Shown: positions 8,458 through 26,003 of the stretch, piece after piece
How the letters are laid out: each line of letters starts with the position of its first letter
Numbering within the stretch: the first letter of the stretch is position 1
Source: Candidatus Uhrbacteria bacterium
GTDB lineage: Bacteria; Patescibacteriota; Patescibacteriia; UBA9934; GWF2-40-263
Direction: 5' to 3'
Assembly: GCA_016235605.1 (NCBI GenBank)
Contig: JACRJW010000023.1
Coordinates: forward strand, 1-55,861
Length of the DNA stretch: 55,861 nt
Notes under the pieces: model-generated
What the model was told of the DNA's origin: nothing
The model's input: only the letters and a program-made list of their open reading frames with translations
The model's database searches: none
Position numbers and translations under genes: made by a program

Positions 8458-11115
8458 ATGATGCCGAATAATTTTACACATAAATCACAGGAGGCGATCC
8501 AGATGGCGCACCACATTGCCGTGGAGCATGGTCAGCAGACTCTTGAACCGATTCATCTTCTCTCTTCCCTGCTCACCCAAGACGACGGTGTGGTCGGTGC
8601 GATCGTGGACAAAATCACCCCTTCGCGCGCCACACTTCGCGGTGAGGTCGACGAGATCCTTAAGTCGCTTCCTCGAACCGGCGGAGCCTCTCCAGGCGAA
8701 CTTATACAGATTTACATGAGCCAACAGATGGCCAATGTCTTGGCGCAGGCCCACAAAAAAACAAAAGCCTTCAAGGACGAGTTTATTTCCACGGAGCATT
8801 TGTTCCTTGGACTGCTCACCAACAAAGCCATCAACCGTCTCCTGCTTGGCTACAACATCACCGAGGAAACCGTCATGGCGGCGCTCAAAGACATTCGTGG
8901 CAACCAGCGTGTTGATTCACCTGAACCAGAAGGTCGTTACCAGGCTTTGCAAAAATACGGTTTTGATTTGACGCAGGCAGCGCGCGACGGAAAGCTCGAT
9001 CCGATCATCGGTCGCGACATGGAGATTCGTCGGCTCATGCAAGTCCTCTCACGGCGCACCAAAAATAATCCTGTGCTCATCGGTGAGGCGGGCGTGGGAA
9101 AAACAGCGGTCGTCGAAGGGTTGGCGCAGCGCATTGTCTCAGGCGACGTTCCAGAATTGCTCAAAGAAAAGGTCGTCGTCTCTCTCGATCTCGGCGCACT
9201 TGTGGCTGGCACAAAATATCGTGGGGAGTTTGAAGATCGCCTGAAAGCCGTTATCAAAGAAATTGAAAACTCCAGCGGACGTATCATTTTGTTTATTGAT
9301 GAACTTCACACGATTGTCGGTACAGGAACCACCGAGGGAGGATCGTTGGACGCGTCAAACATTCTTAAACCCGCCCTGGCTCGCGGAAATCTGCGTGCCA
9401 TCGGTGCGACGACACTCAGGGAATACCAAAAACACATCGAAAAAGACGCCGCGCTCGAGCGACGGTTCCAACCTGTGATCGTTGAGGAACCGAGTGTCCA
9501 GGACACGATCGCGATCCTGCGAGGCATCAAAGAAAAATACGAAGTGCACCACGGCGTGCGCATTTCTGATCCGTCGATTGTTGCCGCCGCACAGCTCTCG
9601 CATCGCTACATTACCGATCGCAATCTTCCAGATAAGGCCGTTGATCTTATGGACGAAGCAGGATCAGCTCTGCGCATGCAGATAGATTCCATGCCCGAAG
9701 AGCTCGACAAACTCAAACGCGATCTCATGCGTCTGGAGATTGAACAAAAGGCTCTTCAAAAGGAAGAAGATCGCGAATCAAAGGAGCGATTACGTGATAT
9801 TGAAAAACAGATTGCTGATTTACGAGAAGCCACCTCTGGATTGGAAGGTCGCTGGCAAAACGAAAAGAAAAAAATTACCGAAATTCAAGAAGCAAAGTCA
9901 GAAATCGATTCCTTGCGTGCGCAGGCCGAGGCCGAAGAACGACGCGGCGATTTGGAAAAGGTCGCCGAGATTCGCTATGGAAAACTTCCCCAGGCTGAGA
10001 AGAAGCTACGCAAAATTGAATCTGAGCTCGTAGGTTTGCAAAAAGAACGAGGTCTTCTGAAAGAGGTTGTGGGTGAAGAAGACATCGCGCAAGTTGTTTC
10101 GCGCTGGACGCATATTCCTGTCTCCAAAATGCTTGAGTCAGAAATGGAAAAACTGGCGGACATGGAAACCGAATTGGTAAAACGTGTGGTGGGGCAGGAG
10201 GAAGCCATCAAGGCCGTGTCCAATGCCCTGCGTCGTTCACGTGCAGGCATCGGCGAGGAGAAACGTCCGATCGGTTCGTTCATTTTCTTGGGACCCACGG
10301 GCGTCGGCAAAACAGAACTTGCTCGCGCCTTGGCTGAGTTCATGTTCAATGACGAGTCGGCACTCGTAAGGCTCGACATGTCCGAGTACATGGAAAAACA
10401 TGCCGTCTCAAAAATCATTGGGTCCCCTCCTGGCTACGTCGGCTACGAAGAAGGTGGCCAGCTCACAGAGATTGTTCGACGCAAACCGTACGCGGTTCTC
10501 TTGTTCGACGAAATTGAGAAGGCGCATCCAGACACGTTTCACCTGCTCCTCCAGATCTTGGATGATGGACATCTCACGGACGCAAAAGGTCGCAAGGTGA
10601 ATTTCAAAAACACCATCATCATCATGACGAGCAACCTCGGCTCTGACGTGATTCTTTCTGCCGGCAATACAAAATCCGCTATGGGATTTGATGATGGCGA
10701 AGGCGTGTCAGAAGAAACTGATGTTCAGGATCGCGTCATGCAAATGCTCAAGGATGAATTCAAGCCAGAGTTTTTGAACCGCGTGGACGAAATTATCATG
10801 TTCCACTCCCTGTCCCCTGCGCATATTGCAAAGGTGGTCGAGCTTCAAATCGGCCTTGTCGAAAAACGGCTGAAGTCACAGCGCGGCATTACACTGAGCG
10901 TCACCGATTCTGCTAAGGAACTGCTCGCGACAAAAGGGTTTGATCCAGCCTACGGCGCGCGGCCACTCAAGCGCGTCATCCAGTCGTTGATTCTCGATCC
11001 CCTCGCGCTCAAAATTGTGAGCGGTGAAATCCACGAAGGCGAACGCGTCACCATCGGTTGCAAGGACGATGAGATCGCTTTCCAAACCAAAAAGCTGGCA
11101 AAAGTGAAGGCTTAA
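8458..11115 (+). CDS. clpB: ClpB disaggregase (two AAA+ modules plus middle coiled coil)
   Basis: 885 aa with Walker A GEAGVGKT (NBD1) and GPTGVGKT (NBD2) and a long coiled-coil M domain. Confidence 0.95.
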
Positions 11116-20190: not shown

Positions 20191-22017
20191 TCACAATTTA
20201 TGCTTCACAACAATGATCTCTCGGGCAGACCGATAATCCTTGATAGCTCGTGGCGTCCAGCCGATGCGTTTCCACGGAATCCGATACATGAACGACGGCA
20301 ACCAAGTAGAAATCCCGCGGCGTCCACCATCTTGTTGAACCGTGAACAGGAACGCGTCGACGAAGACACCCGTATGTCCTTGCTCAAGCATCGTAAGCCA
20401 GAGATCCCAATCTTGAAAGCGTTTGAGGGAAGGATCAAATCCAGGGAAGTGCTCACGCCGGATGAGTGACATGGTGTTGATGTAGTTATTTTTTCGCAGA
20501 GCATTCGCATCGAAAGCGTGTGAGGCAAACCATCGATGCCCCCAGAAAAAACTGGAGTAGGCATACGAAGCTTCTGGATGTGCACTCAGTGCCTGCTCCA
20601 ATGTCTCCAGCATCGTCGGTTCAGCTACCACGTCGGCATCACAAAAAAAGAGCAAGGATCCTGTCGAGCGTCCAAAGCCTGCCATGCGTGCGGCAGGTGC
20701 GCCTTGGTTTTCTTGAAAGTCGAGATAGACGATCCGATCGAGATACGGTTCAAGTCGTGAGCGAGTATCGTCCGTGGAGCCATTGTTAACCACGATGATC
20801 TCGTCTGGGCGCCGTGTCTGAGCAAGGAGAGAATCTAGGCACGCCGTAATCGTCTTGCCATGCTGGTAGGTTGGGATGATGACCGAGATGCCAAGGGGCA
20901 TAGGTTGTAGGGATGAGGTTGTAGGGAGTAGGTAGGCCTTCAACTTTCTGAATTGCTCCTCACAAGTAAATTTCGCGGCGTGGTCGTAGGCTGCGAGTCC
21001 AAGCTTGATTCGAAGTTCTGCGTTGCGCGAGAGCTCAAGAATCTCTTGCGCAAGGTGCTGTTCATCTTGATCTCTCAGCACGATTCCCGTCTCACGATCG
21101 ACCACAGCCTCCGTTACACCTGTGACGTTGGTGGTGATGCTGGGAACGGCGTACTGAGCGGCCTCCAAAAAGACAAGTCCAAATCCTTCCTTGTCGACAG
21201 GATCATTTGAAACGGGCATCACAAACACATCCGCCACGGCGTAGAGCTGGCTTTTTGTTGTGCGGTCGACTCGACCGTGAAAACGCACAGAGTCTTGGAG
21301 TCCAAGTTCACTCACCATTTCTTTCAGTGTTCCTTCCTCTGGTCCCTCGCCTGCGATGTCGTAAACGAAATTCTCCAGCAGGCCTTGGCGGCGCAGGAGT
21401 GACAAGGCGGTGAGCACATGGGCATGGCCCTTACGTTTTACGAGTCGGGAAACGGTCAACAGGTGGAATCGTCCGTCAGATGCAGGTTTGGTCGGCAGAG
21501 GCACCGTGGGCAAACAGGGATACACCACAAGAAGCTCTGTCACTCCAAAAACCTTTGCGACTTCTTGCGCAAGCGCCTGCGAATTACAAACAACGACACG
21601 TGCATATTTCAGAACCTGCGTCGCCATCGCTCTTTTTCGTGCTGACTGCTGTGCAAGCCGAATATCCATCCCATGCACAAACACGACATACGGCGTCTTC
21701 GTCTTTTTCATCGCAACCATGGCGGCTGTTCCAAACGGAAGAACATGACTGGTCAAAATCAATCGGTAACGATCTTGATAGCTTTTGAGGATCCTGACCA
21801 TCTTCCACCAGCGCGGAAAAATCCACTTGAACAAGAGTGGGCTGCGATACACGGGATAGCCAGCGCTGGGATCGGACGACTGCCAGGCAGGATTGGGCAC
21901 TGTGAGAACCTCGATGTCGTCCTTAAAAAAGGTCGCGAGTTCACTCAGGTAGCGCGCCACGCCGCCTTCCATGGGCGGAAAATCTGGAGTGATGAGGAGC
22001 ATTTTTTTTTGGTTCAT
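20191..22017 (-). CDS. Two-domain glycosyltransferase (N-terminal GT4, C-terminal GT2)
   Basis: Start set at MNQKKMLLITPDFPP (ATGA overlap with the flippase stop). GT4 E-x7-E block (EGFGLVFLEAAQYAVP), then GT2 blocks (VIIPTYQHGKT, VVNNGSTDDT, FCDADV). Confidence 0.75.
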   Translation of the reverse strand: MNQKKMLLITPDFPPMEGGVARYLSELATFFKDDIEVLTVPNPAWQSSDPSAGYPVYRSPLLFKWIFPRWWKMVRILKSYQDRYRLILTSHVLPFGTAAMVAMKKTKTPYVVFVHGMDIRLAQQSARKRAMATQVLKYARVVVCNSQALAQEVAKVFGVTELLVVYPCLPTVPLPTKPASDGRFHLLTVSRLVKRKGHAHVLTALSLLRRQGLLENFVYDIAGEGPEEGTLKEMVSELGLQDSVRFHGRVDRTTKSQLYAVADVFVMPVSNDPVDKEGFGLVFLEAAQYAVPSITTNVTGVTEAVVDRETGIVLRDQDEQHLAQEILELSRNAELRIKLGLAAYDHAAKFTCEEQFRKLKAYLLPTTSSLQPMPLGISVIIPTYQHGKTITACLDSLLAQTRRPDEIIVVNNGSTDDTRSRLEPYLDRIVYLDFQENQGAPAARMAGFGRSTGSLLFFCDADVVAEPTMLETLEQALSAHPEASYAYSSFFWGHRWFASHAFDANALRKNNYINTMSLIRREHFPGFDPSLKRFQDWDLWLTMLEQGHTGVFVDAFLFTVQQDGGRRGISTWLPSFMYRIPWKRIGWTPRAIKDYRSAREIIVVKHKL

Positions 22018-23453
22018 ACGCGTGGACGCACGGATTTCAATAAAAAGCGGAGGTCGTCCAGGTGCAGGGACTTGGTAAAAAGGAGCAAGGCAAGGTAGAT
22101 CGCTGCTCCCAACGGAATGACGAAGATCCAACCGACGAATGGTTTTGTGAGCAGAACCGCCAGGAACATCACAACGCCCGAGGAAAAGATAGGCAACAGG
22201 ATCCCTGCCAAGTGCCGGAGTCGAAAGGTCGGGATGAGTTTTGGCACAAAAAATAATCCCGCCACAAACATAAAACAAAAACACGCCAGGGCCGCAGTGA
22301 CAGCGCCCATGATGCCAAGACGTGGAACGAGCAAGAGATTCAAGACGACGTTAATGAGCATGGTGACACCCATGATAGCCGTTTTGGTTGCCTGGCGACC
22401 TGAGGCATTCAAGAGACTCCCGACGGGAAAATCGAGGAAGATCGGGATCAAGACAAAGACAAGCACAGAGAGCACCATCGCCGCCTGGGAATATCCTTCG
22501 CCCGCCAGGCGTACGACCTCAGGAGCAATCGCGGAGAGTCCCAGCACGATGGGCGTGGCGAGCATGGCCATGTACCACATGCCTTTTAAAAAAATGCGCT
22601 CAAGCTCGGCAGGATCCTTCCCGATGACCGCGCTCATCCCGGGATACAACGCCGCCGTGAACGCCAACGGAAGAAACTGGAACGCGTAGGTGAATTTGTA
22701 GGCGAGTGCGTAGATGCCCACCGCTGTGGTATCGAGGAACTTCGAGATAAGGATCGAGTCGACGTAGGAATACATTTTGACAAAAAGCGCGGCAAGGGCG
22801 AACGGAAACGCGGCGATGAGTATCCGTCTACAAGCGATGCGATCAAAGGCTGGTTGAAGCGCACGAGCACCGAGCCGTTTGACAATGTTGTAACCCGCGA
22901 CGACCACGTTTGTCAGCGATCCTGCCATGAGCGCGACAACCAACAGCGGGAGCGACGGCGCGCGCCACAGGACAATTCCGCCCACAAGACCTGTGACAAG
23001 CTGTCCGGTAAACACGCCAAGTGATTCATAACGCAGCCGTTGGAACCCACGCAGGACGCCGTAAAACAGAAGATGGAGTGCGTCCAGGGACAATACGACG
23101 CACGCAAGCAAGATCAAATATTGGAGCTCAGGGCTGTAGTTAAGCAGGCGTCCGGTGACCACCGCACCGACAGAAGCGAGCACAAGCAACGGCAGTTTGA
23201 TCGAGAGCGCCTGCGAAAGAAGTTTGGCTGCGTGCGCCGGATCTTTCGCGACCTCGCGGATCACCACCGGCGTGACGCCCAGATCTGCCACCACGGTATA
23301 GATGACGGTGATCGATACGGCGAGGAAGTATTCCCCTGTTGCCTGTGGCATCATCACGCGAGCCACGAACAAAAAGTAGACAAAAGCGATGATCTTTTGT
23401 CCGACAGAGGCGAGGGTGAGGAAAGCGGTGTTTTGGGCGACTTGGTGAGTCAC
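22014..23453 (-). CDS. Wzx-like polysaccharide/oligosaccharide flippase
   Basis: 479 aa, about 12-14 TM helices, family-like N-terminus. GTG start, with a TACAAT box about 10 nt upstream. Confidence 0.7.
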   Translation of the reverse strand: MTHQVAQNTAFLTLASVGQKIIAFVYFLFVARVMMPQATGEYFLAVSITVIYTVVADLGVTPVVIREVAKDPAHAAKLLSQALSIKLPLLVLASVGAVVTGRLLNYSPELQYLILLACVVLSLDALHLLFYGVLRGFQRLRYESLGVFTGQLVTGLVGGIVLWRAPSLPLLVVALMAGSLTNVVVAGYNIVKRLGARALQPAFDRIACRRILIAAFPFALAALFVKMYSYVDSILISKFLDTTAVGIYALAYKFTYAFQFLPLAFTAALYPGMSAVIGKDPAELERIFLKGMWYMAMLATPIVLGLSAIAPEVVRLAGEGYSQAAMVLSVLVFVLIPIFLDFPVGSLLNASGRQATKTAIMGVTMLINVVLNLLLVPRLGIMGAVTAALACFCFMFVAGLFFVPKLIPTFRLRHLAGILLPIFSSGVVMFLAVLLTKPFVGWIFVIPLGAAIYLALLLFTKSLHLDDLRFLLKSVRPRV

Positions 23454-23485
23454 AGTGTGGACATTGTATCGAACTCGCAGGGATT

Positions 23486-23516
23486 AGAAAACCCACCTCG
23501 AACGGATCGGGTGGGT
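23486..23516 (-). terminator. Intrinsic terminator after the orphan gene 23523-24431
   Basis: Stem acccacc/ggtgggt followed on the minus strand by tttct. Confidence 0.55.
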
Positions 23517-23522
23517 AGATGT

Positions 23523-24431
23523 CTAGCGCTGCGGGAACAAGTCAGGCCCAGTCCATGGGCGCATGGACGACTTCCCGTGAGCAGAACGTACGACTCCCAG
23601 ATGTCCTCTCTGACTGGCCTGCGCACGCAGTTGGGCGTTCAACTCTTCCCTTCGACCAAACTGCGCTTGCCAGAGCTGGGAGAGGACAAGATGCAGGTCC
23701 ATGACAAGGCTGGCTTCCGCCGGCGAGTACAGTTCGCTCTTTGACGATGATGGCTCCCAAACCGCGCTACCCTCGCGCCAATGTTTCCAAGCGCCTGCAA
23801 ATCGCTTGGTAATCGTCCATCCGTTTTGCTTGGTGAGTGGACCACTGACCTTCAAATCCCAGACAACCTTGGTCAGGTTCAACCTGTCGGACGTCGTGTC
23901 CGGCCCTTGATCGCGCTGATACCCCATGGAGATGCAGGCGATGAAGCTCGATCCTTCTTCGACACGTTCACGCGGAAAAAGATTTACGGCCCTGATGCAG
24001 GCCGTAAAGAGCTTGTCGGCAATGGCGCCTTGCCGGAGCATCTCCAACAACTCCGTCTGTGCAGGAAAAAGATGGATCTCGATATCGACCTCTTCTTCGT
24101 TGGTCGAGGGATCGATCCTGAAATCAACAATCGTTCCACGCAACGCGACGATGTTGGGGATCCAACGCTCAGGCTCCATGAGCCCGCTCACGTCCACCCA
24201 AGCGATTTCCGGGAAAGAACTCCGGCTTGGAAGAATGACTGGCGCCGTTGAATGGACCTGCGGAAATTCGACGAACACCTGTCTCCAGTCTTTCTCGCCG
24301 AGCTCTGTTCCTTCCTCTTCATTGAACGTGTCGCCATGGTCGTTCAAGACGTGGACGGCCACTGCGCTTCCGTTTGTCTTCCCAACCTGCGTGCGTGTAG
24401 TTGCCACGCGAATGCGTGTGACATCACCCAC
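23523..24431 (-). CDS. Orphan protein B (302 aa), no recognisable domain
   Basis: GTG start preceded by GGAGG at a 5-nt spacing. It has its own candidate promoter and terminator. No motif recognised. Confidence 0.55.
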   Translation of the reverse strand: MGDVTRIRVATTRTQVGKTNGSAVAVHVLNDHGDTFNEEEGTELGEKDWRQVFVEFPQVHSTAPVILPSRSSFPEIAWVDVSGLMEPERWIPNIVALRGTIVDFRIDPSTNEEEVDIEIHLFPAQTELLEMLRQGAIADKLFTACIRAVNLFPRERVEEGSSFIACISMGYQRDQGPDTTSDRLNLTKVVWDLKVSGPLTKQNGWTITKRFAGAWKHWREGSAVWEPSSSKSELYSPAEASLVMDLHLVLSQLWQAQFGRREELNAQLRAQASQRGHLGVVRSAHGKSSMRPWTGPDLFPQR

Positions 24432-24452
24432 ATGAACCTCCGTGAGCCACCT

Positions 24453-24482
24453 TATCTAAACATGTAGCGATGTATCTGTCAA
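24453..24482 (-). promoter_or_regulatory. Candidate promoter for orphan B (TTGACA plus a weak -10)
   Basis: Minus-strand TTGACA (24482-24477), then TTAGAT or TAGATA after 17-18 nt. Confidence 0.4.
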
Positions 24483-24493
24483 TTGATCCGAAC

Positions 24494-24515
24494 AAAAAAC
24501 GGGTGAATGTCACCC
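24494..24515 (-). terminator. Intrinsic terminator overlapping the stop codon of orphan A
   Basis: Minus strand gggtga-cat-tcaccc followed by gttttttg. The TGA stop lies inside the 5' arm. Confidence 0.65.
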
Positions 24516-25511
24516 GCCGTGATGCGTGAGTCGAGCGATGTACTCAGGCCCCAGTTCTTCCAGAAGATCTGGAGTTCCCAGTTGCGTCAGATTCCCTGAC
24601 CGACGATTTTCACGCATGAGTTCCCGCAGGGGCCCTACACCCATGCGCGTGGCCTCCAAGTGGTCGAGGTCGTAGCCAGCCGCGCGAAGCTGTACGGCGG
24701 CTCTTCCCTCCCTTCCCTGTTCACCGTCCTGGAAGAATGCGGCCTTCCAGAGGCTTTCCAGGATCGGAGCAAATTCACGGGCCACGACGTCTCCGATCGC
24801 CTCCCAGTACACTCCCCCTGGTTCCCAGGGGTCGCTCAGCGGCAGTGCCGGGACATCCCAGAGGTGAAGAGGCTCAACACTCCACCATGGATAGAACTGA
24901 CGATCCAGAAGACGAACAGGGCCTTTCAGGGGCCAGTGAGCTGCTGCGTATTTCTCTTGTTCCCGGATGTTGTGGTTCACGGCCTGGCTGGTGAGCGTGC
25001 GCAGGAACTGCGTTGAGCTTGCTTGATAGCCCATCACGCGTGTGAGGTCCTGCGTGATCGCGAAGGTGACCTCCACAACCGTTCCCTCCGTTGGGCACAG
25101 GGCTGAGAAAGGTTCGTGGGCCTGTCTGATGGCTGCGAGTGCATCATAGCGGGCCTCCAGGGCTTGCGGGATTGGCGCGTCGTATGCCCCGAGTTGGACA
25201 CGGCCCTTCGCGTCGTGTGGATTGCGTTTGGCGTGCAAACGACGAAGAAGCGCGTTATCGAATGGCGAAATCGTCACGTGCCAGTGGTCGGTCACGTAGG
25301 AGTCAGACGGCGTCTGTTTTGTGACCGTCGTACGCAAGCCGATGGCCGCTGGGATCCTGGAACCGTTTGAGAGCCGCACGATCGCGATTCTCTGTTGCCG
25401 TGCGAAGTCGAGATCAGGTTTGACTTCTTTTCTCCCCTGTTGGCTCGTGAGCTGGTCTCGAAACGAAACCTGTGCGAGGTGCCTGAGTGGGATTGGCGTC
25501 TGTGGTGGCAT
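24510..25511 (-). CDS. Orphan protein A (about 333 aa), no recognisable domain
   Basis: Start set at the second ATG of AAGGAGGaaATGATG (5-nt spacing). The ORF track extends to 25553. Trp-rich sequence with no motif recognised. Confidence 0.55.
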   Translation of the reverse strand: MPPQTPIPLRHLAQVSFRDQLTSQQGRKEVKPDLDFARQQRIAIVRLSNGSRIPAAIGLRTTVTKQTPSDSYVTDHWHVTISPFDNALLRRLHAKRNPHDAKGRVQLGAYDAPIPQALEARYDALAAIRQAHEPFSALCPTEGTVVEVTFAITQDLTRVMGYQASSTQFLRTLTSQAVNHNIREQEKYAAAHWPLKGPVRLLDRQFYPWWSVEPLHLWDVPALPLSDPWEPGGVYWEAIGDVVAREFAPILESLWKAAFFQDGEQGREGRAAVQLRAAGYDLDHLEATRMGVGPLRELMRENRRSGNLTQLGTPDLLEELGPEYIARLTHHGG

Positions 25512-25549
25512 CATTTCCTCCTTCCCCCGAGAATTGAAGCATGCAGAGT

Positions 25550-25591
25550 CCAAAAAGTCAAAACCACCCAGGCTGATGCGAGAGTGGTTTT
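25550..25591 (-). terminator. Intrinsic terminator ending the ribosomal protein operon after rpsI
   Basis: An 8-bp stem aaaaccac/gtggtttt followed on the minus strand by gacttttt. Confidence 0.7.
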
Positions 25592-25598
25592 TTCCCTT

Positions 25599-26003
25599 TT
25601 AACGCTTTGACCACTGCGGTGACCGGCGCGCGGATTTTTTTCCTGGCTTTTTGCGTTCGCGTCTTCGGGCGTCCTGGCTGAGGAAGCCAAGTTTTTTCAA
25701 GACACTGCGAAACTCTGGATTGAATTCAATGAGGCCTCGGGCAATGCCCAACCGAATGGCGTCTGCCTGTCCGCGGACACCTCCACCGGTCACATGCACC
25801 GTGATGTCAAACGTGTCCTGCACGCCTGTCTGTTTCAAAGGCGCCATCACACTCTCACGCAGGGTGATGAGCGGAAGATACTCACTGAGTCCACGTTCGT
25901 TGATGACAATCTTTCCCGATCCACCGTGATGCAACCGAACACGTGCCGTCGCGGCCTTGCGTCGTCCAAGGGATTCAATGTATTTGCCCGTCAGTGCTGC
26001 CAT
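25599..26003 (-). CDS. rpsI: 30S ribosomal protein S9
   Basis: 134 aa with the canonical basic C-terminus (...RRRERKKPGKKSARRSPQWSKR). Confidence 0.95.
   Translation of the reverse strand: MAALTGKYIESLGRRKAATARVRLHHGGSGKIVINERGLSEYLPLITLRESVMAPLKQTGVQDTFDITVHVTGGGVRGQADAIRLGIARGLIEFNPEFRSVLKKLGFLSQDARRRERKKPGKKSARRSPQWSKR

Follow-up and report, generated by a model that had tools for sequence, protein, structure and literature searches.

Two orphan genes, each with its own promoter and terminator, at a ribosomal operon boundary in Candidatus Uhrbacteria

Where do two adjacent genes of no recognizable family come from, and what might they do, when they stand between a ribosomal operon and a glycan cluster? 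The question is raised by a 55,861-nucleotide contig of a Candidatus Uhrbacteria bacterium (GenBank assembly GCA_016235605.1, contig JACRJW010000023.1), analyzed here over its whole length (the window). The window is the entire contig C111 (55.9 kb) of the genome under study (G000; 1.21 Mb in 111 contigs). On its minus strand, the ribosomal operon, in which rpsI is the last gene, is followed by orphan A, orphan B, a Wzx-type flippase gene, and a GT4-GT2 glycosyltransferase gene. Close homologs of A and B were found in Candidatus Uhrbacteria metagenome-assembled genomes from groundwater (Candidate Phyla Radiation (CPR)/Patescibacteria). An initial annotation, made from the sequence alone, had described the pair as a horizontally acquired module of two genes. 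Our analysis indicates that A and B are separately transcribed, long-resident genes, that B is a diverged duplicate of A, and that the pair may act as binding or adaptor proteins. We hold this explanation as a whole (cassettes, paralogy, vertical inheritance, and the binding or adaptor proposal) with reasonably good confidence; what it says about evolution and anatomy stands on much firmer ground than the mechanism.

Reading frames and expression signals of A and B

The two open reading frames (ORFs) lie on the minus strand, A at positions 24510–25511 (333 amino acids) and B at 23523–24431 (302 amino acids). Their orthologs aligned over the full length, with many invariant columns and with in-frame insertions and deletions. 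Differences between orthologs fell at codon positions in the order 3 > 1 > 2 in the minus-strand frames, as exemplified by values of 0.58, 0.24, and 0.17 for A and 0.55, 0.33, and 0.29 for B. Long plus-strand ORFs overlap both genes, some of them with BLAST matches in relatives, which would suit the view that the frames are wrong and that real genes or non-coding functions occupy the opposite strand. Because the 3 > 1 > 2 pattern fits the minus-strand frames, however, we regard the plus-strand ORFs as by-products, not genes, and take that view as already refuted. The full-length conservation of A and B with in-frame indels and the placement of every Shine–Dalgarno (SD), promoter, and terminator signal on the minus strand argue in the same direction, as does an Rfam scan of the region, which returned no RNA family. 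We consider it next to impossible that the frames are wrong. The initial annotation had linked the long shadow ORFs to a raised local GC content; the overlapping ORFs are there, but the GC content is only modestly higher, at 0.56–0.57 against 0.534 for the genome.

The signals around the two genes define two successive units. Upstream of A, the rpsI transcript ends in an intrinsic terminator hairpin (25560–25591, minus strand; −18.1 kcal/mol, z = −3.9 against dinucleotide shuffles, as for all folds below), followed by a U-run that overlaps the −35 box of the A promoter. The letters of the stem varied across seven aligned genomes (those of the genus of G000, here g1, together with G076, G032, and G062 from three further genera), while compensatory changes kept the pairing, and the sequence TTTGAC[T/A]TT 3′ of the hairpin, with the −35 box, was invariant in all seven. 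The A promoter (25533–25561, minus strand) comprises TTGACT (25561–25556), a 17-nt spacer, and the extended −10 element TGcTTCAAT (25541–25533). The 17-nt spacer, TGCTT[C/A]AAT, and a GGAGG-like site were all present in six of the seven genomes (g1, G076, and G032); the aligned stretch of the seventh, G062, stops just past the TG of the extended −10 element. An AAGGAGG site (25523–25517, minus strand) places GGAGG 5 nt before the ATG at 25511. The AGGAGG-5 nt-ATG spacing was kept in G001 and G003, and a GGAGG-like site was also found in the aligned G002, G076, and G032. A most likely starts at this second ATG and not at the upstream TTG (25553). The A terminator hairpin (24498–24518, minus strand; −12.9 kcal/mol, z = −3.4) overlaps the TGA stop codon and is followed by the U-run UUUUUUGUU. 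It was kept in G001 and G003, and G002 has another hairpin at this place.

The B promoter (24454–24482, minus strand) consists of TTGACA (24482–24477), a 17-nt spacer, and the extended −10 element TGtTTAGAT (24462–24454), a layout (TTGACA-17 nt-TGnTT[A/T/G]NAT) kept in all four g1 genomes, G000 and the three other species G001–G003. Its GGAGG site (24441–24437, minus strand) lies 5 nt before the GTG start at 24431, and in G001–G003 a GAGGAG or GGAG stands 3–6 nt upstream of the start. The hairpin after B (23491–23516, minus strand; −17.8 kcal/mol, z = −4.2) is followed by the U-run UUUUCUAA and has equivalents in G001–G003. A and B are thus two monocistronic cassettes, each with a promoter, a short SD-bearing leader, the gene, and an intrinsic terminator. 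The insulation proposed in the initial annotation held up, with three hairpins followed by U-runs, a genuine TTGACA box for B, and an equivalent promoter for A. A generic promoter scan picked up neither promoter because the −10 boxes lack an A at position 2.

The canonical GGAGG sites described earlier for A and B were likewise recovered 5 nt upstream of both starts, and nothing SD-like preceded the starts of rpsI, rplM, rplQ, rpoA, rpsD, rpsK, rpsM, or the flippase gene. Across G000, GGAGG occurred 4–16 nt before the first start in 39 of the 989 crude gene calls, where chance would give about 1%, and one of the 6-mers AGGAGG, GGAGGT, or GGAGGA preceded 57 genes, so that a strong SD site precedes only about 4–6% of the genes. 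The 3′ end of the 16S rRNA carries the canonical CCUCC, and SD sites are therefore usable in this genome. Since they are rare genome-wide, two adjacent SD-led genes beside an SD-less operon represent a real contrast. The conserved promoters and strong SD sites amid SD-less housekeeping genes suggest independent, probably high expression of A and B.

Many of the SD-led genes of G000 encode orphans or proteins with signal-peptide-like or lipobox-like N-termini; a ClpB-like gene (window position 8502, plus strand) is among them, and ribosomal genes are not. This distribution suggests a split in initiation mode between SD-led accessory or secreted genes and SD-less housekeeping genes. As a side observation, the 16S rRNA match in G000 (contig C109:235–1837) covered model positions 9–546 over about 1400 nt, which implies that about 870 nt are inserted into the 5′ domain. 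Insertions or introns of this kind in rRNA genes have often been reported in CPR bacteria.

The flanking genes were assigned by Pfam matches. The rpsI gene (25599–26003, minus strand; Ribosomal_S9, E = 1.8e-44), encoding ribosomal protein S9, keeps its place upstream in all relatives. The first gene of the glycan cluster (22014–23453, minus strand) encodes the Wzx-type polysaccharide flippase (Polysacc_synt, E = 1.9e-29). A TACAAT −10 box (23463–23468, minus strand) lies 9 nt before its GTG start, and a TACAAT-like box occupies the same place in G002, G003, and G008. With this box kept in relatives and no SD site in the start region (window 23451–23468), the flippase mRNA is probably leaderless or nearly so. 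Farther downstream, a 608-amino-acid ORF (window 20191–22017) encodes a fusion of GT4 and GT2 glycosyltransferases, which are separate ORFs (about 363 and 235 amino acids) in G001, G003, G032, G008, G027, and G062.

Relationship between A and B

The initial annotation had described the pair as a two-gene module, but the two genes do not represent two different functions. Profile comparisons point to paralogy. BLASTP aligned A residues 250–293 with B residues 249–286 (E = 0.009), at equivalent positions of the two proteins. A narrow A profile scored 51% against the B profile. With a 39-sequence A-family profile, hhalign gave a probability of 95.9% against the B family (E = 5.9e-9), over 199 columns (A 30–290, B 64–282). 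The controls stayed low, with 0.4% for the reversed B alignment, at most 0.5% for 30 column shuffles, and no higher than 34%, across 64 columns or fewer, for 30 block shuffles. Furthermore, the AlphaFold2 (AF2) models of A and B presented the same order of elements, namely an N-terminal strand, a long β-hairpin, helices, and a second β-hairpin, ending in long helices at about residues 237–260 and 262–278.

Both C-terminal tails carry a PDL[LF] motif. Seven long open frames of G000 carry this motif close to the C-terminus, and A and B are the only recognized genes among them; PDL[LF] was not enriched in other G000 proteins and is therefore not a docking motif that they share. B keeps the structural residues PA..LR, LFP, A(H/C)..L.P, G..F, SLW/QLW, and QL, and has lost the A-type invariants W78, R92, D228, and W230. 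A itself matched the 39-sequence family profile with E = 3e-104 and thus belongs to the family by a profile match over most of its length, whereas B belongs to it by profile–profile comparison only; a HMMER search of G000 with the broad A profile recovered neither B nor any further paralog. Both genes share the place that goes with the family, flanked by the rpsI terminator on one side and the Wzx flippase gene on the other.

These comparisons indicate that B is an ancient, strongly diverged duplicate of A that has been kept beside it in g1. The pair does not resemble a type II toxin–antitoxin system, in which two small, non-homologous genes are cotranscribed, as the proteins are 333 and 302 amino acids long and paralogous, and a terminator and a promoter stand between the genes.

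Inheritance at the rpsI–flippase junction

The order rpsI, A, B, flippase, and glycosyltransferase was identical in G001, G002, and G003, where A and B again stand side by side, which answers the question of whether the two co-occur elsewhere. G004, the fourth other g1 species, has neither A nor B, an absence we attribute to an assembly gap because rpsI is missing as well. Five genomes of other genera (G032, G008, G010, G062, and G076) carry an A-type gene in the same slot and no B; in G010 an extra opposite-strand gene, a 459-amino-acid orphan (L019:8439–9818), stands between rpsI and A in an otherwise identical order. An A-type gene thus occupies this slot in at least five inspected genera. 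In profile searches, A-type proteins were detected in 20 of the 72 genomes of the family as defined in GTDB (11 genera), with one marginal match among the other 89 genomes of the order and another in a phylum-wide sample of 400 genomes. When 1.84 billion representative proteins were searched exhaustively with the profile, only 48 clusters of the family emerged. B-type proteins were confined to g1 and G027 among the 162 genomes of the order that were searched. In G027, a 429-amino-acid B-type protein is alone in the slot, while its sister species G062 has only the A-type; a tree built from rpsI, rplM, rplQ, and the flippase gene unites these two members of a second genus on short branches with 100/100 support. 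Based on this distribution, the A/B proteins hardly occur outside a single GTDB family of Candidatus Uhrbacteria.

The slot itself is variable. In G006 and G007, rpsI is directly followed by the flippase gene. In G009, the slot (L044:1673–3281) holds an N6_N4 DNA methylase and a MvaI/BcnI restriction endonuclease, and in G005 (L045:6288–6951) a HicA toxin with a 140-amino-acid neighbor. When compared with the A and B profiles, the occupants in G005 and G009 and the extra gene in G010 proved unrelated to either. With contents that range in relatives from nothing to a restriction–modification pair or a HicA toxin, the 3′ end of the ribosomal operon is a hot spot where accessory genes have landed repeatedly. 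The conserved-operon boundary noted in the initial annotation is therefore real, and it is a recurrent insertion point.

Such a hot spot, together with the SD-led starts amid SD-less neighbors and the slightly higher GC content (0.56–0.60 versus 0.534 for the genome), could be read as the mark of a recently acquired foreign island of two genes, as the initial annotation had supposed. The rise in GC is modest, however, and the composition of both genes is typical of the genome. Against 1091 crude gene calls of G000, A had a GC content of 0.600 (z = +1.5) and B of 0.567 (z = +0.75), and both had 0.650 at third codon positions (z = +0.6). In codon-usage distance, A ranked at the 67th and B at the 9th percentile of genes of the same size. 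A search around the pair found no flanking repeats, and no tRNA gene or integrase flanks it. The pair sits at the same site in G001–G003, which at the level of the genus is what the initial annotation had said would refute its reading, and the synteny of A extends across several genera. A and B are, in addition, paralogs of each other, and no plausible donor is apparent because the family is essentially absent outside the lineage. The locus shows no mobility genes or repeats. The recent-island reading is largely refuted, and we rate it as very improbable. A-type genes are inherited vertically at the junction of the rpsI terminator and the Wzx flippase gene in a subset of genera, and A and B are long-resident occupants of this junction where they are present.

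Both proteins evolve fast. Relative to G001, G002, and G003, the G000 sequences showed identities of 86, 78, and 93% for S9, 72, 71, and 80% for the flippase, 68, 63, and 58% for A, and 50, 51, and 49% for B. The terminal branches measured about 0.09–0.22 for the flanking genes, 0.23–0.55 for A, and 0.44–0.65 for B, which makes those of A and B about 2.5–6 times as long as those of their neighbors. G003 is the species closest to G000, yet its A is the most divergent. The flanking-gene tree joined G000 with G003 (100/99), and the B tree joined G000 with G002 (97/98). The species grouping was not rejected for A in an approximately unbiased (AU) test (p = 0.10). The discordance among the trees may reflect shifts in rate or exchange between species of the genus, but the signal is too faint to count as a result.

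Candidate roles and their alternatives

The description of A and B as orphans was sustained by every family search. Neither matched a family in Pfam, NCBIfam, PADLOC, or PHROGs; the best sub-threshold matches were NdhN (14.2 bits, cut-off 25) and PRK02821 (12.7 bits, cut-off 106). A Pfam scan of the 39 family members gave nothing above the cut-off and one sub-threshold match to DUF3087. In the defense catalogue PADLOC-DB 2.0, no family was matched by A or B at E ≤ 1. The sole match of the family profile among PDB sequences, OmpA (E = 2.4), was noise. The AF2 model of A is of moderate confidence (predicted local distance difference test (pLDDT) 72, predicted template modeling score 0.70), and a Foldseek search with it against PDB and BFVD found nothing with E < 0.25. 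There was no significant structural neighbor for either protein.

A and B are soluble proteins in which we detected no signal peptide and no transmembrane segment. The highest Kyte–Doolittle means over 19 residues were 1.05 for A and 0.95 for B, below the value of at least 1.6 over a hydrophobic segment of about 19 residues by which we define a membrane protein. Six distant family members (P0044, P0047, P0049, P0055, P0058, and P0062) do have membrane segments, three as a C-terminal anchor and three as an internal hydrophobic insert, which replaces an aromatic-rich loop of A (WP..GP....PWW). Because these relatives tether the same domain in two ways, the family domain may act on the cytoplasmic side of the membrane. 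The near-invariant residues of the family are mostly aromatic or structural (W78, P141, W230, W256, L276, and G280), and R92 and D228 are the only charged ones; they form no catalytic-looking constellation. Since the invariants are of this kind and include no nucleotide- or metal-binding motif, an A-family protein would be a binding or scaffold protein and not an enzyme. The C-terminal tail with PDL[LF], conserved in A and B and predicted to be disordered, could serve as a partner-docking peptide. Conserved disordered tails of this sort are typical of such peptides. B may be a degenerate partner of A, because it has lost W78, R92, D228, and W230, and a contact between the two is conceivable. 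We put forward a non-enzymatic, membrane-proximal binding or adaptor pair as a tentative proposal, one that may well prove wrong.

The genomic contexts of distant relatives revealed no shared neighborhood: P0043 lies amid housekeeping genes, and the contig of P0049 is too short. On a contig from a Joint Genome Institute metagenome (L036:4255–12801), the gene for the tail-anchored P0055 is divergently oriented and stands beside those of a Ser/Thr protein kinase and a 776-amino-acid tetratricopeptide repeat protein, and a giant protein exceeding 2153 amino acids is encoded nearby. This arrangement was the same in two samples.

Several points weigh against our explanation. The homology and structure searches gave no match that supports any function. 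The model of B is poor (pLDDT 43), and its Foldseek list against PDB was mixed and meaningless; the fold shared by A and B rests for this reason on the profile comparison and the order of secondary-structure elements. The membrane anchors are limited to the family's most remote branches, 6 of about 58 clusters scanned, and may reflect neofunctionalization. The B tree weakly conflicts with the species tree (AU test, p = 0.021, a marginal rejection). Finally, the backbone of the species tree does not discriminate between one acquisition of A and an ancestor that already had the gene, with later losses.

The layout of the two genes recalls phage morons and other self-contained cassettes, in which a single ORF placed between two genes brings along a promoter and a terminator. 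A and B likewise each consist of one ORF between a sigma-70-type promoter and an intrinsic terminator, wedged between units (rpsI and the flippase gene) that are adjacent in G006 and G007. Unlike morons, they are not part of a prophage and match no phage family, and they are long-resident, vertically inherited, and host-typical in composition. The likeness nevertheless fits a view of A and B as an accessory conflict cassette, that is, as dispensable genes directed against phages or mobile elements, or engaged with the host cell of a probable episymbiont. Acting as sensors or decoys, or by binding a foreign ligand, they would be expected to evolve fast, in keeping with their long branches. The patchy occurrence in the family, with sister species that differ (only B in G027, only A in G062), and the restriction–modification pair and HicA toxin that fill the slot in relatives point the same way. 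Set against this, A and B lack any PADLOC or PHROG match as well as nuclease, ATPase, or other effector-like motifs. They have stayed single-copy in a fixed position over long evolutionary time, the slot holds at least one of them wherever it is assembled among the g1 relatives (three genomes), and the window has no neighboring defense genes. We judge a conflict role to be unlikely, while giving it some weight.

The Foldseek list of A has also been counted toward such a role, as it consists mostly of ligand-presenting platforms of the major histocompatibility complex class I (MHC-I)-like type, none of them significant. About three-quarters of the best 50 PDB matches of A were α1–α2 platforms of MHC-I, CD1, MR1, FcRn, EPCR, or MICB, over about 120–130 residues, and the predicted order in A, β-hairpins and then long helices, twice, is similar. 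The best E-value was 0.25, however, the MHC-like probability did not exceed 0.10, the template modeling (TM) scores were at most 0.25 and mostly below 0.2, and the root-mean-square deviations were 8–12 Å. No match reached a TM-score above 0.5 or a Foldseek E below 1e-3, and we do not assign A to the MHC-I-like fold, the resemblance being a topological impression only. A bolder version of the idea would make the family new at the fold level, a cytoplasmic binding "platform" with a β-sheet floor and two long helices, in which A and B form a hetero-pair docked through PDL[LF] to a membrane-proximal partner and serve an accessory role peculiar to the lineage, for instance by sensing or sequestering a ligand from a phage or from the host. 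The differential retention of A and B would then reflect ongoing conflict. This scenario is speculative and in our view quite improbable.

The neighborhood on the other side suggests a role for A, and possibly B, together with the Wzx flippase and the glycosyltransferases, for example as a cytoplasmic adaptor or as a chain-length or assembly factor for a lipid-linked glycan. In every inspected genome that carries them, A or B lies directly upstream of the flippase gene in the same orientation. The membrane anchors of the distant relatives and the aromatic-rich loop of A, where those relatives carry a hydrophobic insert, would also suit an envelope-glycan accessory factor. G006 and G007, however, keep the cluster of flippase and glycosyltransferases right after rpsI without A or B, both genes have promoters and terminators of their own, the flippase gene has its own −10 box, and distant family members occur in unrelated contexts. 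We therefore doubt that A and B are glycan factors.

In ultra-small prokaryotes from groundwater, 75–93% of transcription comes from genes without functional assignment (PMC9938205), a large share given how small CPR/Patescibacteria genomes are, and orphans with strong expression signals are accordingly the norm in this group. A and B share habitat and clade with the lineage-specific, highly expressed patescibacterial genes of that study, and their signals would fit strong, independent expression.

Among CPR genomes, a locus of this kind is nothing unusual, and it opens no long-standing question. It nonetheless provides a clean and comparatively well-delimited example of CPR orphan genes. Its protein family comprises about 50 sequence clusters for which no relatives could be detected, the moderately confident model of A has no structural neighbor, the promoter, leader, and terminator signals are conserved, and the A-only, B-only, A-plus-B, and empty states constitute a natural allele series at one chromosomal site. 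These features make it a tractable target for structure determination and heterologous tests. The locus also documents the promoter consensus of the lineage and the division of its genes into an SD-led accessory set and an SD-less housekeeping set.

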